Below are positions 2,204-55,406 of a stretch of 64,000 nucleotides of DNA, in pieces. A program made the position numbers and the translations under genes. Below the pieces are notes generated by a model, which saw only the letters and a program-made list of their open reading frames with translations, searched no databases and was not told the origin of the DNA. This stretch comes from Dipteris shenzhenensis (Eukaryota). The stretch is taken from assembly GCA_047967505.1 (NCBI GenBank), contig CM106538.1. One strand, given 5' to 3'. Numbering within the stretch: position 1 is the stretch's first letter; each line of letters starts with the position of its first letter.

Positions 2204-2257
<54 letters not shown>

Positions 2258-32085: not shown

Positions 32086-34820
32086 TCTATGGTTTTGACA
32101 AGAGGTGCCAAGTGTGAGACATTGTATCCCTTACATGTATCAGGGGTGTCTAATCATGTTGTTGCAATAACCGAGTAGCCAACTACTTCTTTGTGGCATT
32201 CCAGGTTGGGGCACATGAGCCAAAATGGAATGAAACCTTATGCTATTTGGGTTATGTACCACATTTGAGTTTCTCTGACTTTGAATTTTGTGAGCATTGT
32301 CTCTATGAGAAGCAGACTAAATCATACCATAAAAGAAGGGGAAAGAAAGAGCTTGAAAGGCTTGATTTGGTGCATTCAGATGTATGTGGTCGCATGCGAC
32401 ATTCATTGATGATGCAACTAGGAAAGTATGGGCTTATACTATAGCTTGAAAGAGTCATGTGTTCCAGGTATTTAAAAAATGGTTGACTTTGGCTGAAAAT
32501 CAGTCAGGTAGAACACTTAAATGCCTACAGACGGATCCCTCTTACTCTCATTTGTGTATATTTGGGTGTGAGGCATATGCACATGTGCCAAAAGAGCTTC
32601 AAAAGAAGCTAGATCCTAAGTCTAGGAAATGCTCAGGAAATGCGTCTTTCTAGGATATGGTGGTGAAAGTGGAGAGATGGGCTATCGTCTCTGGGATCCA
32701 GAAGCAAAGAAGATCATATGAAGCTATGATGTGGTCTTCAATGAGAAGAAGATGCATAAGACACCCATGAGGGATGTGGAAATGAGGAGAATCACTTTCC
32801 ATGATGTGAATCCATCTGCATATGTTGATAGACAGCAAGATGTTCATGCACCGAATGGTGCCCCAAGTACTTCCATAGGTACAAAATGAAGGGTACATGA
32901 TGGATCATCTATTGGTGAAAATGATGTCCCAAATGTGGCTAATATATACAGGTGGGACAGTAAGCTAAAATGCCCTTGAGAAGATCAACTAGAGGGTCTA
33001 GACCCTGCCTGAGAGATTTGTTCTAGGCAAACCTGATCCAGAGATTTGCTACTACAAAGAGGCTATGGTGCATGAGCATTAGCGCAAGTGGTAGTATGCT
33101 ATGCAATCATAGGTGAATTCACTCATGAAAAATAAGACTTGAGACTTGGTTTCTTTGCCACATGGAAAGAAATCATTGCCATGTAAATGGGTCTACAAGA
33201 TGAAGGTCATAGGTGATGATGTGCCTAAGTACAAGGCCCGTTTGGTTGCTAAGGGGCTCAAGCAAGAGAAGGGTTTGGACTTTGATGAGATCTTCTCTCT
33301 GGTTGTGAAGATGACCATGCTTAGATGTATACTTGGACTTGTGGCAACAGAGGATATGGAGCTGATGCAAATGGATGTCAAGACAGTTTTCTTGCATGGG
33401 GATTTGCATGAGGAAATTTACATGGTATAGCTAGAAGGCTTTGAAGAAAAGGGCAAAGAGAATTTGGTTTGCAAGCTAAAAAAGAGTCTCTATGTCCTTA
33501 AGCAAGCGCATAGATAATGGTATCAGAAGTTTGATGCCTTCATTTGGTCCCATGGTTTTAGAAGAATTGAGATTGATCACTGCCTCTACTCTAAAAGGGC
33601 TAAGGATAAGAGCCTGGTACTCCTAGCACTTAATGTGGATGATATGCTATTGGTTAGCAAGAACACTAACGAGCTGGATACATTGAAGGCCAAGTTGCAT
33701 GAGGCCTTTAACATGAAGGATTTGGGACCTGCAAGTCATACTCTTGGTATGCGCATCATGCATGACCGGAGTAGGAATCTCCTTTGGCTTTCACAGAAGG
33801 AGTATGTTACAAAAGTGTTGCGGTGTTTCAATATGGAGGGGGGGAAGGCAATAAGTACTCCATTTCCTCCATATGTGAAATATAGTCAGGCAGATAGTCC
33901 CAAATCAGATGAAGAGAGGGCATGATGGCCAAGATCCCTTATGCATCAATGATTGGGAGGCTTCTGTATGCTATGATAGCTACTAGATTGGACATTACAT
34001 TTGCAGTGGGAGTTGTTAGCTGGTATATTTCTAATCCAAGAAAGAGGCATTGAGAGGCAGTTAAGTGCATCATGAGGTACATGAAGGGTACCAAGGAGAT
34101 GTGTATCTTCTTTGGCAAAGGAGAGATGTGTGCACTTGGGTACACATATTTAGACTATGCAAGACATGTGGATAGCAGGAGATCCACTTCTAGTTATGTG
34201 TTCACCTTTGCAGGTGGTGTAGTGTCGTGGATGTCTTGTGCACAAAAGTGTGTTGCTTTGTCTACCATAGAGGACAAGTATGTTGCAGCCACAAAGGGTT
34301 GCAAGGAGGCTATATGGCTTGATCAACTAGTGGGAGATTTAGGGATTCATACAGGTGTACCGACATTGCATAGTGATTCCATGAGTGCTATTTTGCTAGC
34401 ACAGAATCCGGTATTTCATGCAAAGATGAAATGCATTGAGGTCAGGTACCATTTCATCAGGGAGGTACTTGAGGACAAGCACATAGAGCTTGTCAAGGTC
34501 ATAAAGATGATAATCCTGTAGATATGCTGACGAAGAGTCTACCTAGTTAGCGATTTTAGTATTCCCGTGTATTGATGGGCATTGGATAGTATGTCCATTG
34601 GTTGTTCTCCCTTAAAGGCACATTGGCCTTTCAGTGGGAGGTTATGGGGGTGAAAGGCCACTGTACCTTAACCCCAATTATGTACAATACTCAAACACAT
34701 ATATATATGGATGACATAGAAGATTAGGGTGTTTTGCACCCACCAAAACTTGTGTGGATCTCTCTTCTGGCTCTTCCTTTTCTCTCACCCTCTTCGGTTC
34801 CACTTCTATTGTCAACAACA
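32086..34820 (+). mobile_element. pol: Old Tnt1/Tork-like copia copy 2 (5'-truncated; IN-RT-RH, PPT, 3' LTR 34643-34820)
   Basis: Contains LDLVHSDVCG, CKWVYKMK...YKARLVAKG, DSRRSTS and NPVFHAK. Its LTR is homologous to 55161-55331. Several internal deletions are present. Confidence 0.92.
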
Positions 34821-36199
34821 TCATTTGAATTGCTCAAAATATATCAATATATATAGAAGGAGTAATATCCATTTCAAAATGCAAATTTCTTACAACAGTC
34901 GATCCAAAAAATCTCTTCATACTCTCTTATCTTAGAACATCACATTCTGGCTCTCATACATTTCCAAGCATGGATTGAAGAGGTACACCCAATAGGTGGT
35001 GACCCTTCATATATATAAGCATTAAACTATGCTAGAATATATTTAAAATACTATCCAGATAATATCCACTTATCATAGATTACCATGTCAGCATCTAATC
35101 CTCCCACTCCCACACCCGCAAGGCACCATATCTATTACATCATCTGACATATTTCATCAATGGCTAGCTCAACTTTCACGTCATCATGTTTGCCATGTGA
35201 GCTTGGTGCCCAATCATCAGTGGTGTGCCATGTCAGCTCACAATGCCCAATCACAGCATGTCCATCTCAGTTGCCCACCTCATCATTGCCATGTGGCACA
35301 ACCCCTTACTAGGCAATATTATCTCTTCATAGGCACACGGTGCATTTGGCATGTGACCTCACACTACCACATCATCACATGTGCCACCTTTGCACTCCCT
35401 TGGACAAAGTTTGGCACAAATTTCAAATGCCCATAACTTTTGATCCAGATGGAATTTTGCAGTGATCCAAAAACAAAAAATGATCAGTAAATTGTGCTCT
35501 ATATGGTGAGAACCTTAGATGTACCTTCTAACTTTTCCACAGGTCATAATCATCCAATCATCATCATCAAAATCACCTCTTGATCCATTACATCCATTCA
35601 ACACATAAAATAAATTAACTAACATTCGTTTTGTTGCATTTTGCGCTTTTACACTAGCATAGCCATAGAGGAGATTAAACTAGCATAGCCATAGATTTAG
35701 ACTACCTCTAGTCTAGATTTAGACTAGCATAGCCATAGATGAGATTAAACTCCACAAAGCTAAGTAAGCCATTGCCATGTCACCCACTTAGTTCTTACCA
35801 GCATCACTCCCATCTAATCTATCTTCAATATACACATTCACACATCTGACACCAACTCAATCTCTTGGCATTTGGCAATTCAACATGTCAATTTGACATT
35901 TGGCAGTCATCATCCTCGTGGATCAAAATTGTTACATTCTTTTTGCACACACATATGCCACCCATGTACAGTCATATTTATCAACTATTTTTTGGCATTG
36001 GTTCGTGCACTAAAGTCAACCAATCTAGGTGAATTTGGCATTAGAGCATAGAGATGATCCAAGCATGCAAAACCTTTTTCAATAGTAATATCAATCTCAC
36101 AATGACTAATTTAATGAATCTTGCCCCGGCTAAGGCTAAAATTTCCATCTTAGCCCTGCTGTGGACTCCAAGAAAAATGGGAGCCCCTCCATTCTCTAA

Positions 36200-36700
36200 G
36201 GAATAAAACCCTCCTAAAAGAAGCTTCTCATGAGGTCCCTTGCATGCTCATCCAAATAGCCATTAGTTCATGAATAGAATCTATTTAAATAATGGCCAAA
36301 TTGTGAGAAGGGTGGAACTGTGATCCATCAAAGGCCTTCATGCATCTAACTCTCTAGATGTGCCACACTAAAATAATCACCAGTATCTCCCAATAAGAGT
36401 CAAAAGCTTGCATAGGCCATGTGAAAAGAAATTTTGTCATCCAAATCTCAACTAAATTTTGTTGAAGACCTAAAATATCCCAAAAGAGAGAGCTAGGTAT
36501 GAGCCCTAGGTCATAAATAAGGGGATAGAGTAAATATATTAAAAATTCTAGCAATCCCCTTCCATATGATCCTTGCATGTCTGTAACTCCATAGGCAATG
36601 TTGAATAGTCTTCACAATCGTATACTACCAAGGACAAGTGGAGTCTGCCTCAAACCTAAACCTCCCTAAGCTCACTCCAATCCCTCAATGTATGGAGCCA
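36200..36700 (-). pseudogene. Possible decayed LINE endonuclease fragment
   Basis: The minus strand shows FTW...DHS...FMN*WL in the order expected for the L1 APE C-terminus. It is very degenerate. Confidence 0.35.
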
Positions 36701-36913
36701 AAAGAAAAGAGTACTTTTTCTATTCCTTGGGGATTTTTTGAGTCTCCTCCAAAAAAACTTTATGTAAATCAGTAAAAATTATAAAAATTCTCCCAATGAG
36801 GAGCTCTAGAGGGCCCTAAGTTATGCACTATTTAGAAGCACCATGTATCATGTGTGTTTTAGGATAGCATCCATAAGAGGAGAGGAGGGAGATCTAAGAT
36901 AGGCTAAACTAAA

Positions 36914-37048
36914 GATCCATCTAGTACTATCCATCCAATCTCCACCCAAAGGAGTATAGGACTATTGTGCAGTGAAGTAAGGATCCATCTAGTACTATTC
37001 ATCCAGTCTCCACCCCAAGGAGTATCTTACATTGTGCAGTGAATAAAG
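36914..37048. repeat. Tandem duplication, ~68-bp unit x2
   Basis: GATCCATCTAGTACTAT...ATTGTGCAGTGAA at 36914 and 36982. Confidence 0.85.
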
Positions 37049-38249
37049 AAATATTTTCATGACTCTTTCTAGGCATAATTCCTTTTATCACAATCAATGA
37101 TATTGACTCCTCATTCCCATGTGGGAAGTATCAAGGTCTCCCAAGCCATCATTGCTGAAGCATTTATTGTACTATGTAGTCCACTCCAAAGAAAGTTCTT
37201 TATAGGCCTCTTAATCCAAATGTTGTAGTCCCTAGAGTGTCACCAAAAAGACCAAAAAGTCATGTTGTGGCTAGCAGAACTTGGTTAACAACAACCAATC
37301 TTGAAGAAAGTTCAAGTTTTGATGAACTCCATAAAAAGAGCTTTCTCTTGAATGAAAGGCATACTATTTGAATCTCATGCATGAAAGGCATACTCCGGTC
37401 TGTGATCTAACAATATTTATTGGTAATCCCTTGATGTAGCAAGGTGCTTTTGAATCCATGTATTAGTAGGCCATTTCTACTCCTCCCTCTATAGGGTCAA
37501 CAACTTTTGGTGAATACCAACCTCCTTTTTGAGAATCTCACATCTCTTATTACTAGACATTGAAGATATAAATCACTAATATCAAAAAGGGATGTTGCCG
37601 TAAATGAGGGAGAGGGAACTCCCCCTTTTCATATGAGAAACCTAGATCTACAAAGCTACCTCTATGAGATTCAGGTGATAGTAAGGTAAGGTGTCCAAAA
37701 TAGTTGTGTCCCGGACACGAGTTATGAAATCACAAAAACCACAAAAGCAAAGGATATTTTTTAAATAAGTTTTGTTACATGCAACCAAAACATGGGCATC
37801 TACTATAATTGCAAACTGTGTCAATGGGATTCACCCAATATTTTCTATGTTCTCCCATTGTGTTTCTATTTGTCTCACAATTTGAATCTGTTGCAATCTT
37901 ACATCCTGTATCTCTTGTTGTCTCTTTGAAACTCGACATCAATCTTCTATGCTCTTCTTGTCTACACATCCTCCTCTTTGCCCAAGCACAATATGGAACC
38001 ACCTGTCAATCTTCCCTGCAACCATGGCCCCGTTGACAAGGTATGCATAGTTTCTAACATGTAATGTGGATGATCTTATGGTATCTTCCCCTCTCTCCCA
38101 GTCTTCTACATCTATTCTTGCCTATGCGTTTGTAACTCACACGATTTATGGAACTTGTCAACATTCTAACGTATACTATTCATTGCAATCAGAGCCTTTT
38201 CAAAGATATATCACCATAATTATAGATTATACAAAAATATGAAGCTAAT

Positions 38250-41200
38250 AGGAGATGGGAGTGAAGTAAAATAAAACTAGTAACACAAACCAATGACCTT
38301 TCAATGGACATTGAAGCAAAGAAGAAAGAGACTGCAAGCAAAATAATCAATAGTATTTTGTAGTTCTCCCTTGCTTTTGGTAGGAGAGATAGGTTAGAAA
38401 TCATTCAATCAATGATGAAGAACGAACACATTTTGAAAGGTCTTGGCAACCAACACATTGATAATTTCATAGTTCTATATGCATTAAAGAGGTCCTTACA
38501 AGAACCAAAGAATCCCAAATTAGACACATAACTCTTTGTGAAGCCAAGCATACAAACCATGGTACTAGCATCATTAAATGAGGATGAAATTTCTATTCCA
38601 AGAGATTCAAGAGTGCTGAACATGCACCCTAGGAATTTATACTCACCACTTAATAGGTTTTCAAATGATGAGGATGGAAGAAAGTTGTCTTTTGAGCTTT
38701 GTAAACAAAAATCCCATGATGATGTGTTGAGCTCTGAAGTAAGGGAACTCATCGTCAAATTTTGGATAGAACAAACAAGGGTGACACCAAACAAGAAGGA
38801 CATTTGCCATCATCAAATTGCAAAAAATGAATATGAGAAGCACCCAATACATTTTCTTGATGATTCACAAAGGTAAGATCAGTTGCTATATGTATTGTTT
38901 ACTATGAGTTGTGGCTGTGTGCTCTATAGTAGTTTTTAATAGGCTACATGAGAAGAAATGATGCATTAATGTGTTATATGGATAGCATGTATATAAGTCT
39001 ATTACATATGCATACAATGTTGTTTAGCATACTAGGGAACTCATAGCATGCATGGTTCCAACCCCATCTTTGTCTCCTAAGTTTTCCCTATTGTCTAGAG
39101 TTCCAATCCTCGTGGGACATGAAAAGAAACCCCCAATCTAGCCACAATGGCAAATTTCTTGTGTTGTGTGCTAGCCTTTAATGAAATCATAGTTCTTCCC
39201 ATTAAACTTCGACAGCCAGTGGAACAAGATCAAGAGGAAGAGAGGATTATAAAGAATAATACTATTTCCTAAGTGTACAGGAGATCTATAATTTCATGGA
39301 ACCCTGTATTTTGTGCTAGCCTTTGATGAAATTATAGATCTTTCCAAGTACACTTCGGTAGCCAGTGGAATAAGATCAAAAGGAAGAGAATATTACAAAG
39401 AGTATTACTATCTCCTAAGTGTATGGGAGATCTATAATTTCATGGAAGCTTGTGTTGTGTGCCAGCCTATGTTGTGTGCTAACCTTTGATGAAATTATAG
39501 ATCTTTCCAAGTACTCTTTGGCAGCCAGTGGAACAAGATCAAGAGGAAGAGAGAATTACAAAGAATGTTACTATCTCCTAAGTGTACAAGAGATCTATAA
39601 TTTCATGAAAGCATGTGTTGTGTGCTAGCCTTTGATGAAATTATAGATCTTTCCAAGTACACTTTGGCAGCCAGTGGAACAAGATCAAGAGGAAGAGAGG
39701 ATTACAAAGAATATTACTATCTCCTAAGTGTATGGGAGATATCTATAATTTCATGGAAGGGTATATAGTGGGTTTCTTTTCATGTGCTAAAGATGTGGAC
39801 TATCATATGCTAGTTAATGCTAGTTAGGACTAAGGTATGATGCTAGGGACTTGCTTTTGAAGTCCTTGAAAACAATCGTCTTATCAAAAGCTTTTGCCCA
39901 AGTCCTACCCTCTCTAAGTTAATTATCTCTACATCATTCAAAGTCACAACTAGGAAAGGTTGTCCTGTTAGCTTGACGAAGCAATTATACATGGTGTGCC
40001 ATGTCTATGTACATTGAAATTTTCTGCTATATAGGTCTGAGTAGCACAAATAGTGAGCTATATAGTATACATAGCTCCACATCTATGTGTGCACTCAAAC
40101 TGTGTTATGTAGTAGATTTTGTGGGGTGTATAGCCTTGTATAGCACAGATAATGTTGTATAGTGCATACATGTTCTGCCCCATCTCTATGTATTGAAATT
40201 GTCTACTATGTAGCTGTAGTCTACCACATAACATATGCAGTTTTCTCTTTTCTTGTCTATTTCATCAGACACAACTTCATCTACAAATGATAGGCGGAAC
40301 AGTTTAGGGAGTGTTTGAAGAATTTCCCTTCAGATGTCATTGTGTTTGTTATGGACTTTGTAGACAATTACTCATTCAAAGTCCAAAATGAAATTCAATC
40401 CATGCATTGGCATTCAGATCAGTGTACAATCCTTGTTCATATTACTTATTGCCGCAACTTTCTGGATGACCAAATTATCAAGGAGTTTCATTTCTACATT
40501 TCTGATGATAGAACACACGACACTCTTTTTGTATAGCATTGCCACAGCAAGACCCATTTACTTTGTTACCAAATTATTTGCATTGGCCAATGTTGAGATG
40601 ACTTGGAACTTCTTTGGATCATGCCATGGCGAAGGAGAACACGATGGTGCAAGTGTAGTGATTAAAAGAGCCCTTACACATGAGCAACTCAAGACTGGTG
40701 GTGTGGTATTGAAGCAAGCAACTGATGTAGTGCAATTTTTAACAAATTCATCGAGTACTACTGCATCTACTAGCTCCAAGCACAGGGAAGGTCCATCCAA
40801 AAGAGTGTTTTGGGAGATCAAGTTGGGTGAAGTGGATAGAACCAAGACATGGGGTTGTGCAAGTGTGGAGGGGTCTCGAGGATTGCATAGCATTTGAGGA
40901 TTTTGTAGACATGATGCAACGCAATTCAAGAAAATGGAATTGTCCTGCTATTGCCATGCATGCATGCACAAAAGGTGGAGATCGTGTGAGAACAAGTCCC
41001 ATGTTCAAGCTTGGGCATCAGGCATTATTTCTCCAACTGATGAGGTATCAAGTGAAGAAAACATAGTTGAAGAACCTATCAATGAGGGCTATGAGGACTT
41101 GTTGAGTGATCTGCTTGTAGAGGGAGACAATTTTGCTGTGAATGCCGAGAAGGGAAATGATGAGGGTGTGGATTTCTTCATTTTGAAAAGTAGCCATGCA

Positions 41201-41435
41201 AAGCAAACAACCAAGAAAAAGCTTAGAGAGAAGTGGGGCACTAAGTGTGGTAGGGTATCAAACTATGTTACTAGATGGTACTGTGAACAATGCAATGACC
41301 ATTGCCATTATCTTTTCTCATCTTGTTAGAGCCATGAAATTTGACATGGAATTGGTGGATCGCAAAACTAACATATACTACCTATCCTCGCAAGTGCATT
41401 AATTGATCTACAATGCATTACCCTATGAGGCCTGA
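38250..41435 (+). pseudogene. Decayed intron-containing DDD transposase, tentatively Sola2-like (copy B)
   Basis: One exon ends FWIEQTRVTPNKKD...HPIHFLDDSQ at an AG|GTAAG donor (38873). A later exon from ~40261 reads FIRHNFIYK**AEQF...MDFVDNYSFKVQNEIQSMHW...ISDDRTHDTLFV, then WNFFGSCHGEGEHDGAS..IKR and a CYCHAC...C...H tail. The SDG-containing segment is deleted at ~40545. Confidence 0.75.
39161..39760. repeat. Tandem array of four ~145-bp units, each with an internal inverted repeat
   Basis: CTA(G/A)CCTTT recurs at 39171, 39316, 39479 and 39625. Each unit carries ATGAAATTATAGATCT and its reverse complement AGATCTATAATTTCAT (perfect in units 2 and 3, imperfect in units 1 and 4). Confidence 0.92.
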
Positions 41436-41990
41436 ATGTGAGGCAAATGTGACCTGTGAACTCTGAACATTTCATCAACCTTTCTAGTAGTAACCAATCC
41501 AAACCTTTTCTTATGCATGGCTCACAGGGTTGTGCAAAATACTGTTAAAAGATTATCTTTTGTGTTTTATTTTAGACCTCTTTTGTTCTACTACTATGTT
41601 CCATCTCTTCTACTCAATGCACAAACAGCCAGAAAAAATAACGGAGTCAATGTTAAAAAAACCAACAATATTGTCATCCTCCAATTTCACTATTCTTTTT
41701 TGAAAACAACCATCCACACAATAGCCTTGAACTTATCTTAGTCTACGTGATCATAAGGTCAATCAACATGAACAAGAGAATTACTCCCAAAGTCTCACAT
41801 GAACAACCAGTAAAATAGCAAAGTCTACAACTCAGCATATGGATATCCTTAGAGAAAAAATACCAACCAATACCAAAATTTTTGGGCTTCTTATGTTTGA
41901 TTATTGGTTCAATATGTTTGGGCACAAAGGAAGAAAGTGTTTTAATCATGGTGCAACATAGTCATGAAATCAAATAGTCAAATAGGGAGC

Positions 41991-42380
41991 AACCAATTCG
42001 GTGCCATATAGCAAATACTAACTGATTTATTGCTATATAGTTGATCTATTGACAAATAGTAACCAATTTTGTGCTATATGGCATAGAAAATAACCAATTT
42101 AGTGCTAACTAGAATATATACTAATGGTTTTGGTGCCATATAGATAATCTATTAATAGACAATAAACCGATTTAGTGCTATATAGCACATACAATAGCTG
42201 GTGTGGTGCTATGTATCTACTTTATTGACAGAGACTAAGTGATTTAGTGCTACATAGCTAATTGATATAGCCGATGTGGTGCTAGTGCTATGTATCTACT
42301 TTATTGATAGAGACTAAGTGATTTAGAGCTACATAGCTAATTGATATAGCTGATGTGGTGCTATATAGCACATAAAATAA
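41991..42380. repeat. Short degenerate repeat array (~11 copies of AACCGATTTAGTGCTATATAG-like motif)
   Basis: The motif recurs every ~30-45 bp with variable AT-rich spacers. Confidence 0.8.
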
Positions 42381-42719
42381 CTTTTATCCATGTGAAAGAG
42401 AACTCATACAACTGCATAACATAAAGAGAGAACTTGTGAATGTGCAATGTGCTTTCCAGCATAGACAAACAACATTAGAAGATAATAATTAAATATAGTT
42501 TTAATTACAAAAAATTATTTGGTAGGTACATTGGTCTTACAAAATCTCTAGCTCCTTCACAATATAGTTTTTTACATAATGTGAACCATAATATATGTAC
42601 AAGACTAATGACGAGAGCTTCCCTCATGTTGTGTACTCTCACAAAAAGGCAGTCATATTGCTCTTTGGGCATGGATACCTTATCGTTTGGATTGCTTAAC
42701 TTGTTCATTTTATAAAAGT

Positions 42720-43919
42720 TTCAGCAATCATGTGCAATGTTCCACATAGCCAGCTAGTATATCAACATTTTTGTGAGCTAAAAGGGATCCTGCTAATTGT
42801 CCTTGAGATCAAACCTCTCATGACAAATGCATAACTTTAGGGTCATTCAGGATGGACTTGTACAGCATGTCATCAACAAGCAGTGTGTTGTCAAGGTTAA
42901 ATTCGATATAGAACCTCTAGATGCATTCAATATTCTTGAAGAAAATGAATTTCTACCACCGATAACTTGTAGGAACCCTAGGCACATCCCCAAACTAAAA
43001 TGGTGCCTCTGTGCATTCATCTTATACTAGCTCTACCAAAAAAAATCATTCTCCTACACAAGTTAGGAAATGCTTGTTGCATTGTATTTTCCATATTGCG
43101 GTAGGTACAATTGCTCCAAATAATTAAGCCTCTCCCCCTATAAATCCTATGTCTTTCTATAGCAAACTCCATTCATGTTCCATCCTGTTCATCTTTGTGC
43201 GCTTGCACTCTGCAAAATACAAGTCTCGACTAGCGACCTAAAGATCCTAGTGTTCCTCATCAAGCGCCAACTTCAAACATCCCAAGGTAATCTCAGCTAC
43301 ACTTGTCATTCCTGCAATGCCATCTTCCTATTTTTTCTAGAATTCTAGGCTCATATAAAACATGTTTTTCACTAGCATTGTGGAAATGACAGGTTTTACA
43401 TTGGAGGGTGAAGGGAACACACCATGCAAAGATCTTATATTCTCTTCCCATCTCTTGTGCTTTGCACCTAGATGCCCTCAAACCTCAGCATGTTCCATTG
43501 CACTCTATGCAAATGGAGCCCATGCAATGGTGAAAGGCTGCATGTCCTCGGCTCTCTGCGATGACTTGCAATTCTCCGAAAGACTTTGCAAAAAATTGCC
43601 CAACTTTGTAACTGGGTGGCCCTTCTTGATAGACTTCATAATCATGACTCTGCACAAGCTTCTTGGCAAACTCATCACATACATGATACGACTTTATTTT
43701 CTTATGCCTAGTATGCGGTTTGGGACATGCAAATACATACTCCCAGTCTACAAGGTTGATGTCTTTTGAACCTGTACATATCTCCCTTGGATCTATTCCA
43801 ACCATACTAAGCCCATACTCCTTATTAAACTCCCGTGCATACTGGCAAATTTTATTTTATACTGGCACATGCACTTGTGATATCTTCTTATATGCCTTGC
43901 GAGTTGCATTAGCTTCCAT
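42720..43919 (-). pseudogene. Decayed gene with C-terminal FCP1/NIF-like HAD phosphatase domain
   Basis: An acceptor (CTTTGCACAG) precedes ACCATGG at 43919 (MEANATRK...). Downstream fragments read GLIIWSNCTYRNMENT (43130), *DECT, FIFFKNIECI*RF..FNLDNTLLVDDMLYKSILNDP (~42950-42838) and DPFL. These match the IWSS / QxxC / NTLLxDDxPYK motifs of plant NIF proteins. The N-terminal catalytic motif was not found. Confidence 0.7.
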
Positions 43920-44134
43920 GGTCTGTGCAAAGACAGAAAGACTAAAAGTCAATGTATGTTGCGTAACTCTGAATTCAGTAGTCATTAAAAAAGGGCAGCT
44001 TTTGAAAGTCTATCCTCAACAGTGCTTAAATTTTTTGTGTAGATTGAGCTTCCCAGTTCATGTCACTGCATCCCCAAAAATCCAAAATGTCACTAGAATT
44101 AAAGTGACCTCATGAACAAAGCTTCATTGGCACA

Positions 44135-44137
<3 letters not shown>

Positions 44138-44193
<56 letters not shown>
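44138..44193. repeat. (AG)n microsatellite, (CT)n in the putative 5' leader of the minus-strand NIF-like gene
   Basis: Direct reading of the sequence. Confidence 0.95.
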
Positions 44194-44197
<4 letters not shown>

Positions 44198-44990
44198 TGA
44201 GGGAGAGAGGAGCAGCATAGAGAGGGAACTTGAGCCTTCCTAAGAGCTTCTGACACAGAGAGGGAACCTGAGCTATCTAGAGAGGAAAAGTGGGTGTTTT
44301 GAAGAATTAAAATTTTTTGGGAACTTCACAAAAAGTTTTATGAAGCTTGAAAGTGTGTGGCAAATTTAAGCATGGATTCTCAGCTTCACCACTCACACTT
44401 TCAAAAAAAGTTCATCACACTTCACCTGTTTGAATCCTCAGTGTGGGGACATTGAAGTTGAGCTGAACGATAGCACAGTACCATAGACGACGAATATAGA
44501 AAACTAAAGGTCTTCAACTTGCAGGATAGGGGAACAAATGATTGACAACATGATGGTTGTGGTGGAGGGTTTGCATTAAGTGTAGGGGTGAAATTCACAA
44601 TGGGTATGCCTCTTTCATTTTTGTGTTTACTCCAAAGTTCACACTGATGGCCTTGACGATGTCCATCGTCAAGCCCAGAATATAAGCGCATGCTTGATTG
44701 TTTTGTCTTTGTTGTGTATTCCAGTTCTGGTTCTGTTGTCTTCTAGGTGTTGCATTGTTATATCTTGGGTTCGCTTGTGCTCGCACCTATTTGGGTAGCT
44801 TGTGCTACTGGTTGCATATGAGGAGGTAACCTCCTCCTATAACTTGGATTATACCAACACTTTTCTTTATGATGATTATCTTTTCCATAGTACTCACATG
44901 GTACCTTTTCTTTCTTTGATTCTACTCCCATACTCTTCAACTCTTCCTTAATTATCTTCTCAAGTTTAGAGTCTCCTTTGGGACTCATTT

Positions 44991-45161
44991 TGTGGGGGTT
45001 AAAGGTCACTGTGCCTTAACCCCGGTTATGTACAATACTCAAACACATATATAAATGAACGAAAAAGAAGATTAGGGTGGTTCTGCACCCACCAAAACTT
45101 GTGTGGCTCTCTGTCTCTCTCTCTCCTTCTTCCGTTCTTGCTTCCATTGAGAGCACTCTCA
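44991..45161 (+). repeat. 5' LTR of outer copia
   Basis: TGTGGGGG...CTCTCA with a TATATAAA box. It is identical to the 3' LTR at 168/171 positions. Confidence 0.97.
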
Positions 45162-45163
45162 AC

Positions 45164-45175
45164 TGGTATCAGAGC
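45164..45175 (+). promoter_or_regulatory. Primer-binding site (tRNA-iMet) of outer copia
   Basis: TGGTATCAGAGC, 2 nt after the LTR end. Confidence 0.95.
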
Positions 45176-46667
45176 CCGAGTGATCTAGCTGAGCGTGCGT
45201 GAATGCTGGAAGCTCAGCAGCTCTGTGGGAGGAAGGAGAAGCTCTGTGGGAAGCTTTGTGGGTGACTTTACTTGCGTCCGAGTGTGCAGAGACCTTGGAG
45301 GAACCTTTGGAAAAGTCACTTTGGCTTTGCGAAGTGGTTTTGAGAGCCTGTTAAGTGGTTTCAAAGAAAAAGTCGTTTTTGGAGCTTTTCCCTATTCCGT
45401 TCGATGACAAAGACTCCGTATTGACTTGTAGAGGCAACTATTGCTTGCTTTTGGTGTCCACTTCACTTCAGGAGCTTGGAAACACCTTCATTCTTGAATC
45501 TGGGATCATTTCATTGGAATTCTGACTCATTGTGTCAGTTCCTGCGTTTTTCGCCCGGGTGTTGGAACTCAAGTTTGGAGCAACCATTTGCAGATCTATC
45601 AGTTCCGGTGGACTCAGGAGGTCCTAAAACTTCTATGTTGCTCATCATTCGCACTCCGGTGGAGTTTACAAACAGCTCTGTTTCAAAAAACGTTTTTCAG
45701 TCCGTGTGTTGGACCCAGTGATTGAGACCACGGTTTCCAAAACCGTCTATCTCATTGCGTTCCGGACGCCCAAAAACCCCTACCTATCAGTGTTGAGATA
45801 TCAAGCTCTACCCCCGATATATCTCCTGGATGACTATCATTTATGTCACCGCCTATGTTAGTTGTACTCGTGGTGTAGTTAGACTACCACGTATGTTTTT
45901 GGTTTGGGTTCACATATGAACCACGTATTCTAGGTTTTGACATATAGGGTATTTCCCTCTTCTATTGTATCGTTGTTGTGTGCAAAAGTGAAGAAAGGCT
46001 TCACCCTCCAACCTTGTGTCTTCTCTCTTTTGAGTGTTGTGAAGAAAGTTGAACTTGAGTCTCCTATCTCTCTCCCTTATTCTTTTCATGGTATCAGAGC
46101 CTTGTTCGTGGTAAGGAGCTCAAGAAAGCAAGCCAAGTTTGTGGTGTCCTGGTAAGAGGACCAGTGTAGCTTTCCTATTTCGAGTTTGGGAGCAAATCTC
46201 TGCAAGTAGCACAGCCAGAAGTGCAGGAGTGCACTGCTTCAGATTGAGAGGCCCTTCGCGGTGCGGCGAGAGCGCAGTATATGCTGCGGGAAAGGGCGAA
46301 GTCCTTGGTGACTTTATTTTTCTGATTTGAGGCCGTTTCGGGGCCCGTTTTGAAGGCAGAAGTTCTTCGCAGGCACTCAGAAAAAGGCCCTGTTTTTACT
46401 GTGCGACCACTGCGCGCGGCCAGTCGGTGGAAAGGTGCCACAGAAATTGCATCGTATGCCTGTGTGCAGAGATATTGGGAGTTGCAGATTCATGCCTGTT
46501 GCTTGTTGATGCAAAATCGTCACTAGGAAGTGACTGTGTGGTGAAATACCACTTTCGTCAGTGTTGCAGATCTGCCCCTGTGAGGCTTTTTGCAGAAGGT
46601 TTGCTATTTGCCCTTGTGAGGCATTTGCTGTGTTTACAGGTTGCTGTTGCAATTCATGATTTGTAAA

Positions 46668-49600
46668 ATGTCTGAGAATCTGTCTACCATTGTCAGTGAG
46701 AAGCTTGACAAGAACAACTTCCAAGCATGGAAGTTCAGGATGACAAACTTCCTTATGGGAAAGGGAGTTTGGGATTACATCAGTGGTGAAACTGTAGAAC
46801 CAGTTTTGGGTACTGCTCCCACTCCTGCTGAATTGAAGGCCTTTAAAGAATGGCATGAAAAAGCCAGAAAATGCTTGTATTGGCTGTCTGTTAGCATTTC
46901 AGATTCTATGATTGTGCATATACAGGATGTAGAGACGCCTAAGGAGGCATGGGATACATTGGTGAAGCTGTATAGCACAAATACCAAAGCACGAAAGATG
47001 CAGCTAAAGCAGGAGTCGCACAATGTGCAAAGGAAAAATCTGAATATAAATGAGTATTCCTTGAACTTGCAGATTCTCTTGCCTCCAATGGAGCACCTGT
47101 TGATGATGACTTAGTGTCCGTGACCTTGAATGGTCTTGGGAAAGATTATGCACAGTTTCGGACATCCATTGGAGTCCGTGAAACATTTCCTGATTTTCAG
47201 GAACTTATTGCTCTCTTGCTGAGTGAAGAGCAAAGGAATGGTGGTTCAGCCACCTCAACTTCTCAAGAGACTGCTTTCTACTCGAATACAGGTAGAGGCA
47301 GGGGTAGAGGAAGAGGCCGTTTTGGTGGCCGTGCAGGAAATCAGAACCAGCAGCAACAACAAGAAAACCAGTCCTATGGAGGAGGACGTGGTAGTTCTAG
47401 AGGCAGGGGGAGCCAAAGAGGCCGTGGTTCATGGCAAAGGAACCAGCAAGTAAATAGCAGCACAGAATGCTATTATTGTGGAAAGCCTGGACACAAGGAG
47501 AATACATGCTATAAAAAATAGAATGACATCAAAAGTGGGAAGTTGCAGCAAAGCAACTATGCATCATCAAGTGGGCATGGTGACGACAGAAATGAGCACC
47601 TTTTTGTGATGCAGCATATGGTTAACTCCATGTCAGGAGATGTTGCAGCTTGCAATGATGTTTGGTATGATGATTCAGGTGCCTCTAACCACATGACCAG
47701 TCATGGTGAGTGGTTTCATGATGTTAGAAATTTGGATAAGCCAGGTTATGTTGAAACAGGTGATGATACTGCGCACCCAATTACGCAGGTTGGTAAAGTG
47801 CCATTGGCTATGCAGGATGGCAAAACGAAGTACTTGGCAGATGTACTTCATGTTCCAAAAATCACTAAGAACCTGGTTTCAGTTGGCCAGATGGTTGAGC
47901 AAGGTCTGCAGGTTAGATTTAATCCTGATGGATGCTTCGTTGAGGACTTGAAAAATAAGTGCTGCTTAGTTGCGAAAGGCAACAAAAATGGCAGAATGTT
48001 CACCTTGGATGTTGATATGCCTGAGGTGAAAGCTGCTATGTTTGCGCATGGGAGAGGTGTCATTGTAGATATTGAGATATGGCACAAGCGCATTGGGCAT
48101 GTGAATATACAAAGGCTGAAATCTATGCAAACGAAAAACATTGTTGCAGGTTTGCCTAAATTCAGAGTTGAGGGAATGCAAAAGGTATGTGAAGCATGCC
48201 AAATGGGTAAGCAGGCCAGACATGCATTTCCCAAAAATGCTAAGGTGAGCAGAAGACCTTTGGAAGTGATCCATTCAGATGTTTGGACAACCAAAGCTGC
48301 TTCTATTGGTGGATGCCATTATTATGTGACGTTTATTGATGACTACACTAGGAAGGTGTGGATTTATTTTATGAAGCACAAAAGTGAAGTGTTCAGCCAT
48401 TTCAAGGCTTTTAAGGCCATGGTTGAAAAAGAGAAAGGTGTGCATATTAAAGTGCTAAGATCTGATGGAGGGGGAGAGTACTTTTCAGAAGAATTTTGTG
48501 AATATCTGAAAGAACAGGGAATTCAAAGGAAGTACTCATGCAGGTCTACCCCTCAGCAGAATGGGGTTGCAGAAAGGAAGAACAGGCATATTGCAGAAGT
48601 AGGACGGGCGATCCTAAATGAGAAAAACATGCCTGATTATTTTTGGGCTGAAGCAGTAGCAACTGCTGTTTATATTATGAACAGAACTCCCACTGCAGCT
48701 GTCCATGGCATGACGCCTGAAGAAATGTATACAGGCCAAAAACCAGATATTTCTCACTTGAAGGTATTTGGTTGCATAGCGTATGTTCATGTTCCTGATG
48801 AGAAGAGAACCAAGCTGGATCCAAAGGCAGAAAAATGCATCTTTATTGGATATGCTCAGCACTAGAAAGGGTATCGCTGTTATAACCCTTCCACCCGCAA
48901 AATGCAAGTGAGCAGAGATGTTGTTTTTGATGAAATGAGCAGCTGGTATGCACCAACTGTTATGGTAGGAGATGCAGATGCAGGAAATGGGAATGCTGCA
49001 ATAAATGCAGAGCAGCAATCTCAAGCCTTGAGTGGACCCAGAGAGTCCTCTACTAGTGGATCTAATGCATGGACAGGGAGATTGAGATCTAGTGAATCGT
49101 CACATGGCAGCCCTGATAGTGTTGTGTAGGTATCACATAAGGGAAAAGAAAAAGTGGACCATGCACCAGTGTTTGATGTGTCTGCTGGTAGCTCTCATGT
49201 TGATGGAGAGTCAAGTGGCTCTGAAATGAGCCTTGATGAGGAACTTGGGATTCCTTCTGTTGTTACACCTGGTGCAAGGAAAAGCAGGCATGATTTAAAG
49301 ACTCCTGCAACTGATCCAGTTGTACGGAGGTCCACTCGTATTAAGTATCCAGTTGACAGGCTGAGATATGATGGGTATACAGCACATCACTATGCTTATA
49401 TGGTTAAGGTTCTAGAGGAGCCAGAGCCCACATGTTTTGAGGATGCAGCAGGGCATAAAAATTGGGAAGCAGCTATGGATGAAGAGATGGCTGCCTTGGA
49501 TGCAAACCACACTTGGGATTTGATGCCTTTGCCTCATGATAAGAAGGCTATTGGCTGCAAGTGGGTTTACAAAGTAAAGCACAATGCTGATGGGTCTGTT

Positions 49601-51010
49601 AGCAGGTACAAGGCAAGATTGGTTGCCAAAGGTTTTGCGCAAACATATGGAATTGACTATGAGGAAACTTTCAGCCCAGTTGCAAGGATGGCAACCGTGA
49701 GAGCAGTAATTGCTATGGCTGCTGCAAAGGGATGGTCTTTGCATCAGATGGATGTGAAAAATGCCTTCTTGCATGGTGATTTGCAGGAAGAGGTTTATAT
49801 GATGCAGCCAGAAGGTTATGAGGATAATGCACACCCCGATTTTGTATGCAGGTTGTGCAAAGCCTTGTATGGCTTAAAACAGGCGCCGAGGGCATGGTCA
49901 GACAAGATAGGGCAATATCTTGTCACTATTGGATTTCAGATTTCCAATTCAGATTTTTCACTTTATGTGAAAAGGACAAACAGAGGGATTGTGCTTGTAG
50001 TCATCTATGTTGATGACTTGATTATTACAGGTGATAGTGATGCAGACATTAATGAAGTGAAGCTGCTGTTGAAGCAGAAATTTGAGATGAAGGATTTGGG
50101 AGAGCTGCGTTACTTCTTGGGCATTGAGGTTATTAGATCCCCGAGTGGGATATGGCTGTTGCAAAGGCAATACGGTTTGGACATGCTGTCCAAATATGGG
50201 ATGACAGGCTGTAAGCCTATTTCTGTTCCATTGGAGTAGAATGTGAAGCTCAATGCAGAGACAGGTGAGCTTCTTGAAGATATTACTATGTACAGGCGCA
50301 TAGTAGGAAGCTTGATTTACATGACTATAACCAGACCAGATTTGAGCTATGCTGTGGGGCTGGTAAGTCAGTTTATGCAGGCACCGAGGAAGCCACATTT
50401 GGATGCGGCTAGGCGCATACTGCGGTATGTGAAGTCCACATTGCATTATGGACTATTTTATGAAGCTGGGTGTGCATTACAGGTACATGGATACACAGAT
50501 GCTGACTGGGCTGGTAGTGTCTCAGACAGGAGATCTACTAGTGGTTTTATGTTTTCCCTTGGGAGTGGTGCCATCAGTTGGAGCAGCAAGAAGCAGCCAA
50601 CAGTTGCCTTGTCGAGCACAGAGGCTGAGTACAGTGGTTCAGCAATGGCTGCATGTGAGGTAGCTTGGTTACGGAAGCTACTTGCAGATATGGGACAATC
50701 AGTTCATGCAACAGTTGTCATTCATTGTGACAACATTAGCAGCATCATGCTTGCTAATAACCCAGTTTATCATGCTAGAACGAAGCACATTGAGGTGCAT
50801 TATCACTTTGTGAGAGAGAAGGTTCTAGCTGGTGAGATTGATCTTGTCTATGTCAGCACTGAGGAGGAGGTGGCTGATATTTTTACGAAGGCATTGGGTA
50901 CCGAGAAGCTTCGCAGATTTAGGAGCTTGCTTGGTGTACGTGAGATGGATTTGAGCTTGAGGGGGAGTGTTGAGATATCAAGCTCTACCCCTAATATATC
51001 TCCTGGATGA
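46668..51010 (+). pseudogene. gag-pol: Inner copia gag-pol (GAG, CCHC, PR, IN, RT, RNase H) with one frameshift and four in-frame TAG stops
   Basis: Contains KLDKNNFQAWKFRM, CYYCGKPGH....C, DSGASNHM, WHKRIGH, RSDGGGEY, QQNGVAER, YVDDLII and RTKHIEVHYHF. The frameshift is at ~47065; TAG codons are at 47519, 48863, 49127 and 50237. Confidence 0.95.
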
Positions 51011-51265
51011 CTATCATTTATGTCACCGCCTATGTTAGTTGTACTCGTGGTGTAGTTAGACTACCACGTATGTTTTTGGTTTGGGTTCACATATGAACCA
51101 CGTATTCTAGGTTTTGACATATAGGGTATTTCCCTCTTCTATTGTATCGTTGTTGTGTGCAAAAGTGAAGAAAGGCTTCACCCTCCAACCTTGTGTCTTC
51201 TCTCTTTTGAGTGTTGTGAAGAAAGTTGAACTTGAGTCTCCTATCTCTCTCCCTTATTCTTTACA
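50968..51265 (+). repeat. 3' LTR of inner copia
   Basis: TGTTG...TTACA, matching 45791-46088. Confidence 0.97.
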
Positions 51266-52080
51266 ATCAGTTCTTGCGTGATTCGGTGGAGGATTTTCAG
51301 AGTTATAAATCTTTGTGTATTCGATTTCGTCTCTCTGTTATGCATTTTTCATACTAAGGTTTTGAAACCTTAGATTTATGCCACATGGCAGTGGATAAGT
51401 GTTGACTCCCATTTCTCACTCATCGGTTGGGATTTCGGAGTTCTGGGAGAAGAGAGATATTTGCAGATTTTCTTGCTGATTCCGATTATGCAATGGCGCC
51501 CATGTTTTGAGGCATCTCAGGTTCTATTTTCAGTAGCGCTCATTACCGTGGGACTATGATTTCTTGAGCATACCTTATGCAGATCACTCTGGTTGCAGTT
51601 TGAGCAATGTGCGCTCATTCGTGGTATGCATTGGGTTGCAGTGGATGATTTATAGGCCATTTGGATGCATTACGGTCCTTATTGGATGCGCTGATAGGCC
51701 CAAATTGCCTTGTGGGATGCTATTTTTATGGACGCTTTGCACATGGATGCTATTTTATGCTGAGGGACAGCTTTGACACATTGTTGGTGATGCACTGATA
51801 GTGCTATGCTCTCTTGGATGAGATATAATTGATGCATATGCCAGTGGACGGTGTTTATGCTTGAGTCATTTGGCACTTATTGGCATTTTCTTTTGGGCCA
51901 GATTTGCTCATATGGATGCATAGTATATGCACATGAGTCAGATGCATCTTTTGATGCTTTGAGCTTTGAGTCTTTTGTGATATTTCAGTCTATTGTGGCA
52001 TACACATTTGGGTGCACCTGGTATTTGGTGTGATTCTCTCTTGCAGGGACTAGCATTTGGGATTTTGTTTCATTTGCATC

Positions 52081-52286
52081 ATGGCATCCTCTTCCATGCC
52101 TGAAAAGGAGTTTTTCAGCATTAAAAAGTTTGATGGGACAAACTTTTCTTTGTGGAAAGAACAAATAAGGGATGTGCTTATTCAAAAGAAGCAGATTAAA
52201 CCCTTGGCAGGGATTGAAGCTAAGCCTGCAAATATGTCTGAGGATGATTGGAATGAGTTGGATGCATTAGCAAAGTCTACTATTAG
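52081..52286 (+). pseudogene. gag: Outer copia gag N-terminus, truncated by an internal deletion
   Basis: MASSSMPEKEFFSIKKFDGTNFSLWKEQIRDVLIQK...AKSTIR, then an abrupt jump to pre-integrase sequence. Confidence 0.9.
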
Positions 52287-55107
52287 ATGGCCAGGGGTGC
52301 CAAGTGTGGGACTTTGTATCCCTTACATGTATCAGGGGTATTTGATCATGTTGTTGCAATAACCGAGCAGCCAAGCACTTCTTTGTGGCATTGCAGGTTG
52401 GGGCACATGAGCCAGAATGGAATGAAACTCTTATGCCGTTTGGGTTATGTACCGCATTTGAGTTTCTCTGATTTTGAATTTTGTGAGCATTGTCTCTATG
52501 GGAAGCAGACTAAATCAGCCCATAAAAGAAGGGGAAAGAAAGAGTTTGAAAAGCTTGATTTGGTGCATTCAGACGTATGTGGTCCCATGCCTACACGGTC
52601 ATTAGGCGGGGCTGAATACTATGTGACATTCATTGATGATGCAACTAGGAAAGTGTGGGCTTATGCTATAGCTCGGAAGAGTGATGTGTTCCAGGTATTT
52701 CAGAAATGGCTGGCCTTGGTTGAGAATCAGTCAGGTAGAACGCTTAAATGCCTACGGACTGACAATGGTGGAGAGTATCTCTCTCATGACTTTCAGCATT
52801 TCTGTGATACTCGTGGGATTAAGAGGGAGCTTACATCCCCTCGTACTCCAGAGCAAAATCCAGTTGCAGAAAAAATGAACCGTACCATTCAAGAAAGGTT
52901 GCAATGCATGCTTTCTAATGCAAGTCTTTCTGGTGGTTTTTGGGCTGAGGCAATGAAGACTGCAGTGCATGTGATCAATAGATCACCTAGTAAGAGTTTG
53001 GATGGTGGTATTCCTGAAGAGGCATGGAGTGGAAAGAAGCCCTCTTACTCTCATTTGCGTATATTTGGGTGTGAGGCATATGCACATGTGCCAAAAGAGC
53101 TTCGAAAGAAGCTAGATCCTAAGTCTAGGAAATGCATCTTTCTAGGTTATGGTGAAAGTGGAGAGATGGGCTATCGTCTCTGGGATCCAGAAGCAAAGAA
53201 GATCATACGCAGCCATGATGTGGTCTTCAATGAGAAGAAGATGCATAAGGCACCCATGAGGGATGTGGAAATGAGGAGAATCACTTTCCAGGATGTGAAT
53301 CCACCTGCATATGTTGATAGACAGCAAGCTGTCCATGCACCAAATGTGCAAGAAATGGTACCACCAAGTACTCCCATAGGTATACAATCAAGGGTAGATG
53401 ATGGATCATCTATTGGTGGAAATGATGAGCCAAATGTGGCTGATATGCAAGTGGGACAGCAAGCTGAAATGCCCTTGAGAAGATCATCTAGAGTGGCTAG
53501 ACCGCCTGATAGGTTTGTTCCAGGGGTAGACTATGTGATGCTTACTGATTGCAGGGAGCCTTCTTGCTATAGAGAGGCTATGATGCATGAGGATCAACAC
53601 AAGTGGGAGTATGCTATGCAATCAGAGATGAGTTCACTTATGAAGAATAAGACTTGGGACTTGGTTTCTTTGCCACATGGAAAGAAAGCATTGCCATGTA
53701 AATGGGTCTACAAAATGAAGGTCACAGGTGATGATGTGCCTAGGTACAAGGCCCGTTTGGTTGCTAAAGGGTTCAAGCAAGAGAAGGGTGTGGACTTTGA
53801 TGAGATATTCTCTCCGGTTGTGAAGATGACCACACTTAGATGCATGCTTGGACTAGTGGCATCAGAGGATATGGAGCTTATGCAGATGGATGTCAAGACA
53901 GCTTTCTTGCATGGGGATTTGCATGAGGAAATTTACATGGTGCAGCCGGAAGGCTTTGAAGAAAAGGGCAAAGAGCATTTAGTTTGCAAGCTAAAGAAGA
54001 GTCTCTATGGTCTTAAGCAAGCACCTAGAGAATGGTATCAAAAGTTTGATGCTTTCATTCGGTCCCAGGGTTTTAGAAGGAGTGAAATTGATCACTGCCT
54101 CTACACTAAAAGGGCTAAGGATAATAGCATGATAATCTTGGCACTATATGTGGATGATATGCTATTGGCTAGCAAGAATACTTATGAGCTAGATGCATTA
54201 AAGGCCAAGTTGCATGAGGCCTTTGATATGAAGGATTTGGGACTTGCAGGTCATATTCTTGGTATGCGCATCACGCGTGATCGGAGTAGCAAACTCCTTT
54301 GGCTTTCACAAAAAGAGTATGTTACAAAAGTATTGCAGCGTTTCAATATGGAGGGGGGGAAGGCAGTGAGTACTCCATTGCCTCCATATGTGAAACTGAG
54401 TCATACAGATAGTCCCAAATCAAATGAGGAGAGGGCCATGATGGCCAAGGTTCCTTATGCATCAGCAGTTGGGAGTCTTATGTATGCTATGATAGCTACT
54501 AGACCAGACATTGCATTTGCAGTGGGAGTTGTTAGCCGGTATATGGCTAATCCAGGAAAGAGGCATTGGGAGGCAGTTAAGTGCATCATGAGGTACATGA
54601 AGGGTACCAAGGAGATGTGCATCTGCTTTGGTAAAGGAGACATGCGTGTACTTGGGTACACAGATTCAGACTATGCAGGGCATGTGGATAGTAGGAGATC
54701 CACTTCTGGTTATGTGTTCACCTTTGCAGGTGGTGCAGTGTCGTGGATGTCTCGTGCACAAAAGTGCGTGGCTTTGTCTACCACAGAGGCTGAGTATGTT
54801 TGCAGCCACAGAGGGTTGCAAGGAGGCTACATGGCTTGATCGGCTAGTGGGAGATTTGGGGATTCATACAGGTGTACCGACATTGCATAGTGATTCCATG
54901 AGTGCTATTCAGCTAGCACGGAATCCGGTCTTTCATGCAAAGACCAAACACGTTGAGGTCAGGTACCATTTCATCAGGGAGGTACTTGAGGACAAGCGCA
55001 TAGAGCTTGTCAAGGTTCATACAGATGATAACCCTGCAGATATGCTGACGAAGAGTCTACCTATTCAGCGGTTTGAGTATTGTCGTGTATTGATGGGCAT
55101 TGGATAG
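52287..55107 (+). CDS. pol: Outer copia pol (integrase-RT-RNase H); open for ~840 codons, then a +1 frameshift at ~54800
   Basis: Contains LWHCRLGHMS, CEHC, HSDVCGP, TDNGGEY, YVDDML, DSDYAG, KHVEVRYHF and NPADMLTK. There is an extra T in GAGTATGTTTGCAG relative to copy 2. Confidence 0.92.
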
Positions 55108-55160
55108 TATGCTCACTGGTTGTTCTCCCTTAAAGGCACATTGTCCTTTAAGTGGGAGGT

Positions 55161-55331
55161 TGTGGGGGTTAAAGGTCACTGTGCCTTAACCCCGGTTATG
55201 TACAATACTCAAACACATATATAAATGAATGAAAAAGAAGATTAGGGTGGTTTTGCACCCACCAAAACTTGTGTGGCTCTCTGTCTCTCTCTCTCCTTCT
55301 TCCGTTCTTGCTTCCGTTGAGAGCACTCTCA
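55161..55331 (+). repeat. 3' LTR of outer copia
   Basis: Matches 44991-45161. Confidence 0.97.
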
Positions 55332-55406
55332 CATTTCCTCTTTTTTCTTGGTTTTGGTTCAAGCCTTTGTTTTAGACTTCTTGTCTTTTCCGTTTTTCCA
55401 CTCTCG

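Follow-up and report, generated by a model that had tools for sequence, protein, structure and literature searches.

The 64,000-nucleotide stretch examined here, referred to as the window, comes from contig CM106538.1 of the Dipteris shenzhenensis assembly GCA_047967505.1, and the subject of this work is a pair of broken genes within it that converge tail to tail. On the plus strand lies a gene for a DDD transposase, and opposite to it, on the minus strand, lies a gene composed of an N-terminal domain of unknown family and the remnant of a NIF/FCP1-like domain of the HAD fold. A first-pass annotation, made by a model from the letters alone, had proposed the two as a candidate cargo-carrying DNA transposon with a Sola2-like transposase and a phosphatase-like accessory gene. 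All of the motifs that it quoted were present in the sequence, including ACCATGG at 43925-43917 and the (CT)n tract at 44209-44138. Its identification of the plus-strand gene as a DDD transposase was borne out, with the gene being a pseudogene here, and so was its description of the minus-strand gene as a relic of the NIF family with an unrecognised N-terminal domain, for which 14 relatives of that domain and a match to the NIF protein P0133 were obtained. The coordinates of the features are collected in Table 1.

Table 1. Features of the convergent gene pair and of its surroundings. ORF, open reading frame; LTR, long terminal repeat; MITE, miniature inverted-repeat transposable element.
Feature	Position	Strand	Evidence or remarks
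Transposase gene, broken	38364-41435	+	ORFs, tblastn against P0019
Transposase N-terminal remnant	38364-38912	+	In-frame stop 38529-38531
Transposase catalytic core and C-terminal domain, decayed	40210-41435	+	tblastn to P0019 and P0017, 50-60% identity, E 1e-117
Palindromic GTGCTATATAGCAC-like motif array, between the genes	41991-42382	.	Tandem repeats, period 73-79 bp
Minus-strand gene	43919-42731	-	
N-terminal domain of unknown family	43433-43919	-	ATG 43919-43917; stop 43857-43859; frameshift near 43577
NIF/FCP1-like HAD domain remnant	42731-43327	-	Two frames, several stops; IIWSN, DECT, NTLLVDDMLYKS
(CT)36 tract upstream of the minus-strand gene	44138-44209	-	Tandem Repeats Finder, period 2, 36 copies
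MITE-like insert	39117-39785	.	Inverted arms 39117-39143 / 39759-39785, 27 nt, 85% complementary
LTR closing the first copia element	34642-34813		
LTR pair of the second copia element	44990-45161 and 55160-55331		98% identical

The plus-strand gene was reconstructed by tblastn with the full-length relative P0019, of which residues 152-267 aligned to 40210-40542 at 60% identity, residues 299-561 to 40547-41317 at 50% and residues 567-609 to 41301-41429 at 56%, the three segments jointly reaching an E-value (E) of 1e-117. An 80-amino acid (aa) ORF at 40294-40536 retrieved 117 candidates, 115 of them at E <= 0.01 and the best at 75% identity. The reading frame closes with a TGA at 41433-41435, which confirmed the end that had been placed near 41435 in the first-pass annotation. 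In-frame stops interrupt the core at 40288-40293 (two in succession) and then at 40534, 40895 and 41400, and the frame changes near 40540. The first and third catalytic motifs (DFVDNY and HGEGEHDG) are kept and the second (WSDG) is deleted, the missing part corresponding to P0019 residues 268-298, which hold the W-S-D-G motif with the second catalytic Asp. Further upstream, 38487-38912 matched only the far N-terminal part (residues 42-180) of P0104 from the liverwort Calypogeia fissa, and weakly so (24% identity, E 1e-6), while no tblastn match to the Cys-rich residues 1-151 of P0019 was found at this gene. The MITE-like unit, which holds tandem units of 146-163 bp, occupies the gap where about 150 transposase residues are absent. 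An intron spanning 38877-40293 was considered and rejected, because coding similarity extends upstream of 40294 to 40210 through two stops; with an intron excluded, the interval is therefore read, from the alignment, as a deletion plus an insertion.

Seven of the ten stops that could be compared with the residue of a relative fit a single C-to-T or G-to-A change, so that the first-pass description of a similar C-to-T decay in both genes is roughly right, although the same is seen in any old methylated plant repeat. Since both genes carry stops and frameshifts, and since the transposase has lost about 150 residues at its N-terminus along with its second catalytic Asp, the window copy is a fossil, and nothing in the pair at 38364-43919 can work. 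A second 5' fragment of the same transposase family, more diverged or older, was observed on the plus strand at 15834-17282 (P0019 residues 1-145 and 191-305, 27-29% identity), with a copy of the palindromic motif at 15261.

The transposase belongs to a large plant family of DDD transposases of about 600 aa without a Pfam family. Its full-length members measure 567-654 aa, one named liverwort protein (Calypogeia fissa) reaches 747 aa, and protein clusters of the family reach 136 member sequences. None of 13 full-length relatives matched any Pfam transposase family, Pfam being without a Sola profile. A protein atlas returned only look-alikes, in Cnidaria, Mollusca and Chordata, together with DUF7869 clusters at a score of 0.92, and DUF7869 was mentioned nowhere in the literature searched. 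Across the 14 full-length members aligned in A1 (P0046 numbering), D221 and D348 never vary and D306 is kept in 90% or more, the surrounding motifs in P0046 being DFAENY, WSDG and HGKGEHDG. The AlphaFold2 model of P0019, built with 45 sequences, had a mean predicted local distance difference test score (pLDDT) of 82.9; in it, one catalytic Asp lies on strand 1, another closes strand 4 and the last opens the helix that follows. In a wide VIA search, residues 182-386 of this model aligned to the cores of retroviral integrases and to the transposases IstA, Mos1 and TnsB with Z of about 9.4-8.2, at root-mean-square deviations (rmsd) of 3.0-5.1 over 144-194 residues. Foldseek gave weak matches to mostly RNase H-like proteins (best E 3.5e-3), and the transposase profile had no match amongst PDB sequences. 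Because of the conserved Asp residues, the P0019 model and the VIA matches, the family is one of DDD transposases of the integrase fold with an RNase H-like core.

The C-terminal domain of the P0019 model (residues 485-600, corresponding to 41100-41430 on the plus strand of the window) resembles BAH domains. Nine of the 50 VIA matches shown for the model were of this kind (AIPP3, Rsc2, EBS, DNMT1, MTA1, DIM2, ORC1, ZMET2 and ORC1b), with 77-95 residues aligned, an rmsd of 2.9-3.6 and Z of 6.3-7.3, in a range (Z < 8) where VIA matches can arise by chance. The BAH-like domain is a lead for chromatin-guided insertion.

As for the affiliation of the family, passages of PMC5751038 describe Sola transposases as DDD-type and without a Pfam model, those of PMC10741241 place the Sola superfamily in the moss Physcomitrella, and a fern repeat table excerpted from PMC6890710 has an entry for it. 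Sola2 is a reasonable candidate label for the transposase family, by such published descriptions rather than by comparison with curated sequences. The Pfam model being absent, plant genome annotations probably call members of the family 'hypothetical protein'.

The NIF-like part of the minus-strand gene was recognised through its relatives. Residues 225-271 of P0133 aligned to 43015-42842 at E 1e-4 (E 0.002 in another search), the NIF ORF of a metagenomic locus, L021, matched the remnant in two collinear pieces (E 0.02), and a hidden Markov model (HMM) of three NIF sequences matched with an independent E-value (iE) of 0.033. No meaningful match of the remnant to solved structures was obtained. 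Additionally, in P0005, which is 673 aa long and comes from the fern Adiantum nelumboides under the name 'hypothetical protein', the same N-terminal domain is joined to a NIF-like end that scored 21.4 bits, next to a Pfam NIF cut-off of 21.8 bits. Because of the P0133 match, the collinear L021 pieces and the fusion in P0005, the remnant was accepted, on sequence similarity, as a NIF relic.

The motifs of the HAD fold (motif I, the Ser/Thr motif, the Lys and the acidic motif) are defined in the HAD literature and could be followed across these relatives. Motif I reads D-L-N-G in P0132 (the product of the gene at the metagenomic locus L007), L021 and P0134, N-L-N-G in P0133 (alignment A5) and D-M-N-G in P0005; in the window copy the position is unreadable (L-D-E-E-H). 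A DxDx(T/V) motif I with both Asp residues was absent from all NIF relatives compared, and N111 would occupy the position expected for the second Asp, judging from the start of the Pfam match at residue 106. The other motifs are kept: Ser/Thr as IWST/IWSS, Lys as F-x-K and acidic motif IV as IDN/IDD. The closest solved protein to the NIF profile was UBLCP1 (3shq_A, E 2.6e-5), and P0132 searched alone had no match amongst PDB sequences. The replacement of the general acid/base Asp by Asn argues against normal FCP1/SCP turnover, so that ordinary phosphatase chemistry of the partner protein appears doubtful. The protein would more probably be a binder, or a very slow or inactive phosphatase, than an ordinary phosphatase of the RNA polymerase carboxy-terminal domain (CTD).

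The reading frame that opens at the ATG passes the stop at 43857 into a 123-aa ORF. A word-index search with the read-through product yielded 133 candidates, none of them scored, and the full HMMER scan (phmmer) that came after it found 14 proteins at E <= 0.001, four of them at <= 1e-10 and the best at 1.1e-21, all matching within query residues 3-131. An HMM of these 14 relatives matched the window at 43907-43578 (iE 1.6e-36) and, in the next frame, at 43576-43433 (iE 1.3e-6), and no other credible match was found in the 64 kb, the only two others having iE 1.5 and 6 with negative scores. The domain is marked by an invariant W and by V-Y-Q-x-x-P (alignment A3). The 14 proteins scanned had no informative Pfam family for it, and a PDB profile search found no solved relative. 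Its residues have a pLDDT of about 85-97 in the model of P0003; Foldseek with this model gave no match at E <= 0.001, and in the wide VIA search the coiled-coil tail (residues 183-291) took up the list, which is hence silent on the N-terminal domain, leaving the fold searches uninformative for it. The domain seems restricted to the branch of the window and Adiantum. Two other proteins with the domain, P0006 and P0136, have a long coiled coil, along with a RING-like stretch that is rich in Cys and His. The start of P0014 presumably resembles the end of a Ty3/gypsy integrase, and this protein is probably a merged gene model.

The pairing of the two genes was followed in metagenomic data. Scanning them with the transposase alignment yielded 269 matching stretches, of which 238 encode a relative, and the counts of loci given here refer to the best 80, many of which are near-identical duplicates. 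At L007, an intact 658-aa transposase ORF at 541-2517 (+) faces a convergent 402-aa ORF at 3972-2764 (-) that matched Pfam NIF with 55.3 bits (E 8e-15), well above the cut-off given above. At L021, the transposase ends at 4882 and is faced by a convergent NIF ORF at 6104-5319 (-) with 27.1 bits (E 3.7e-6). Both NIF ORFs are intronless, like the transposase. The two loci share 44% identity in the transposase and 33% in the NIF protein, and because they differ deeply in both genes alike, the comparison suggests a long joint descent and not a recent capture.

A quick maximum-likelihood tree was built from 46 rows, namely 21 loci that are not identical to one another and whose ORF reaches 450 aa or more, L021 with its ORF of 305 aa, 23 hand-picked long proteins and the window, with the remaining loci and proteins lying outside it. 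The window, L007 and L021 share one 20-row transposase clade (SH-aLRT 99) and span its deepest split, and the branch of the window is long (0.56), which leaves its exact place unsure. Convergent NIF genes occur in two of the seven locus rows of this clade. In another branch of the family, the part shared by L004 (15-3304) and L015 (5435-8714) is only a 3.3-kb unit, 85% identical, that holds the transposase alone, and single-gene elements therefore exist in the family; the right border of this unit is sharp and the left border lies beyond the captured sequence. A shared acidic/basic ORF downstream of the transposase, considered for L007, L011, L018 and the end of P0014, was dropped (best E 0.12, with no phmmer cross-matches).

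Altogether, these observations incline us, by a modest degree beyond even, to read the window as a dead copy of a land-plant cut-and-paste lineage in which a DDD transposase is accompanied by a tail-to-tail, intronless gene of the NIF/FCP1-type HAD fold, with an extra N-terminal domain in the fern branch. The NIF-like gene of the window would then not be a host gene under selection, because it is as decayed as the transposase beside it. The two-gene element of the first-pass annotation is upheld in so far as the convergent pairing recurs in L007 and L021 within the one clade, and it is weakened by a series of results that weigh against this reading. NIF-like sequence was found in only two of the 80 loci, and amongst the 39 loci with at least 1.5 kb of 3' flank it was found in L007 alone. 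Within the clade, none was found in the 2.4 kb of 3' flank of L018 or in the 1.1-1.2 kb of L011 and L013, and the 3' flanks of L012 and L016 are too short to judge. The HMM of the N-terminal domain matched none of the 80 loci. For the window copy, the first-pass annotation had itself regarded the lack of a NIF HMM hit as telling against the proposal, and no Pfam NIF match at E <= 10 was obtained in either frame tested. It had also proposed to test whether the linkage of the two genes recurs at a fixed spacing; their ends are 247, 437 and about 1300 bp apart in L007, L021 and the window, respectively. Lastly, comparison of 34814-38600 with 43900-44989 and with 55332-60000 gave no inverted match of significance (best E 0.79). 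No terminus could be fixed in the window, in L015/L004 or in L007, and neither terminal inverted repeats (TIRs) nor a target-site duplication (TSD) were found there.

In place of such termini, each transposase lineage has its own palindromic motif of 12-16 bp, repeated in arrays: TGCTAGTTAGCA in L007, AGGTGAAAATTTCACCT in L021, GTACCAATATTGGTAC in L013, TACCATTAATGGAC in L011 (at 1572-2106) and GTGCTATATAGCAC in the window. These arrays are likely to be putative transposase binding sites that co-evolve with the protein, and their positions bear on whether the NIF gene is cargo at all. A different account, which we hold to be possible but distinctly less probable, takes the mobile unit to be repeat array, transposase and repeat array, with the NIF-like gene (and its N-terminal domain) just beyond the right end, through an insertion preference or as part of another repeated unit. 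In the window, ten of the 12 GTGCTATATAGCAC-like matches fall between the genes, at 42001-42360, where a shuffled window is expected to hold 0.14 such matches. L007 has 16 copies of TGCTAGTTAGCA at 49-535, upstream of the transposase, and three at 2617-2669, in the interval that separates the two stop codons (2517 for the transposase, 2764 for NIF); no copy occurs in the 2.1 kb beyond (2700-4828), and inverted arms at 458-505 and 2606-2653 are 83% complementary. L013 likewise has arrays on both sides of the transposase (217-264 and 2370-3049), and the rarity of NIF amongst the 80 loci points the same way. With arrays separating the two genes in L007 as well as in the window, the NIF gene may sit outside the minimal mobile unit. 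However, the array of L021 lies only upstream of the transposase (1409-2376), with none between the genes, and the left array of L007 continues past the contig edge, which puts the true termini beyond view. The same convergent neighbour has been kept by three lineages with differing motifs and 33-44% protein identity, its genes are intronless, and we know of no precedent for an insertion preference for the 3' end of one family of protein genes. Should the arrays be the ends of the element, then the NIF gene of L007 and that of the window both fall beyond the minimal unit, whereas a middle array that serves as an internal site would not place them there. It is chiefly the position of the ends relative to the NIF gene that keeps our preference for the two-gene lineage no stronger than stated.

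Two further explanations appear very improbable to us. The window is a patchwork of nested repeats, and no NIF or N-domain partner was found near its transposase relic at 15834-17282, as would fit two unrelated pseudogene fragments brought together by chance in transposon-rich DNA; yet the same pairing and orientation are seen in L007 and L021 with intact ORFs, and, NIF genes being so small a share of any genome, it is very unlikely that chance alone would bring the two within 1.3 kb of each other three times. The intact ORFs of L007, and the BAH-like domain of the transposase, a domain type that is common in host chromatin proteins, could instead point to a conserved host pair of a domesticated transposase and a NIF gene, of which the window would hold a dead duplicate. 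This idea has hardly more to recommend it, given the many divergent family copies per assembly (L007, L012, L013 and L021 fall under one record prefix), the protein clusters of up to 136 sequences, the flanking of the transposase gene by repeat arrays of the transposon-end type and the decay of the window copy.

The surroundings of the pair consist of transposon-rich eukaryotic DNA with 34-47% G+C, and the pair itself lies within a 10.2-kb stretch flanked by two related copia elements, which are 89-93% identical between 33041-34813 and 53556-55331. Inside the span of the second copia element (44990-55331), a gag-like ORF begins near 46620, and a direct repeat of 300 bp (45789-46088 and 50966-51265, 99% identical) may represent the LTRs of a nested element. 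Simple repeats and LTRs aside, blastn found no further copies of 37000-45500 inside the window.

Returning to the preferred reading of a transposase lineage with a NIF-type partner gene, a live transposase would combine a Cys-rich N-terminal part with an RNase H-like core carrying three Asp residues, and would bind the lineage-specific palindromic arrays beside its own gene, while its BAH-like C-terminal domain could tether it to chromatin. The partner protein has retained Asp as the HAD nucleophile, together with the Ser/Thr, the Lys and motif IV (acidic), has Asn in place of the general acid/base Asp, and may hold a host phosphoprotein in the manner of a slow or inactive phosphatase. A more far-reaching proposal, which we offer as speculation and consider unlikely as a whole, is that this land-plant DDD lineage, from the organism of L007 and L021 to ferns, has long carried an Asn-for-Asp FCP1/UBLCP1-like HAD protein that would trap phosphoproteins, or act as a slow phosphatase, on some target in the host (e.g., the proteasome, or the CTD of RNA polymerase II, IV or V), enabling the element to be transcribed or to evade silencing, with the BAH-like domain reading histone marks to choose insertion sites. 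Any effect on host transcription or silencing, which the first-pass annotation had also brought up, is a matter of pure conjecture.

How a mobile element deals with its host can be learnt from the second gene of a DNA transposon, as in the Myb-like protein of Harbinger and the Fanzor protein of Sola2. The window copy being a fossil, the interest of the present case rests on the intact pairs, and L007 in particular makes phosphatase activity, binding partners and the need for the partner in transposition approachable at the bench. The full-text literature searched, with supplements and subscription papers outside its scope, held no publication that describes a NIF or FCP1-homology gene as part of a transposon. 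A transposon partner of the NIF/FCP1 type is thus apparently unreported in that literature, while Sola2 elements with a second gene (Fanzor1) are already in print (PMC3627910).

Sola2 is amongst the closest known systems. Both have a DDD transposase without a Pfam family (PMC5751038), and a passage of PMC3627910 describes Sola2 elements with a second, unrelated gene (Fanzor1) in a variable 3' part, as well as dictyostelid Sola2-Fanzor1 chimeras; the second gene is of the Fanzor/TnpB kind there and of the NIF/HAD fold here. Passages of PMC10741241, PMC5751038 and PMC6890710, taken together, give Sola elements a 4-bp TSD, AT-rich in Sola2, and Sola2 short TIRs, neither of which was found for the window or its relatives. 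With UBLCP1 and the FCP1/SCP proteins (Pfam NIF, PF03031), the partner proteins have the Ser/Thr, Lys and acidic motifs in common, and the ORFs of L007 and L021 score above the NIF cut-off, but where FCP1/SCP proteins have DxDx(T/V), motif I reads D-L-N-G here, or N-L-N-G in P0133. The partner proteins also differ from that family in that their genes are intronless and lie beside a transposase, and in that the fern form has an N-terminal domain without a Pfam or solved relative. PIF/Harbinger, with a transposase and a Myb-like protein, and CACTA are two-gene DNA transposons of plants. As in those elements, the second gene is possibly needed for, or helpful to, transposition, but it encodes a DNA-binding fold there and an enzyme-like HAD fold here.

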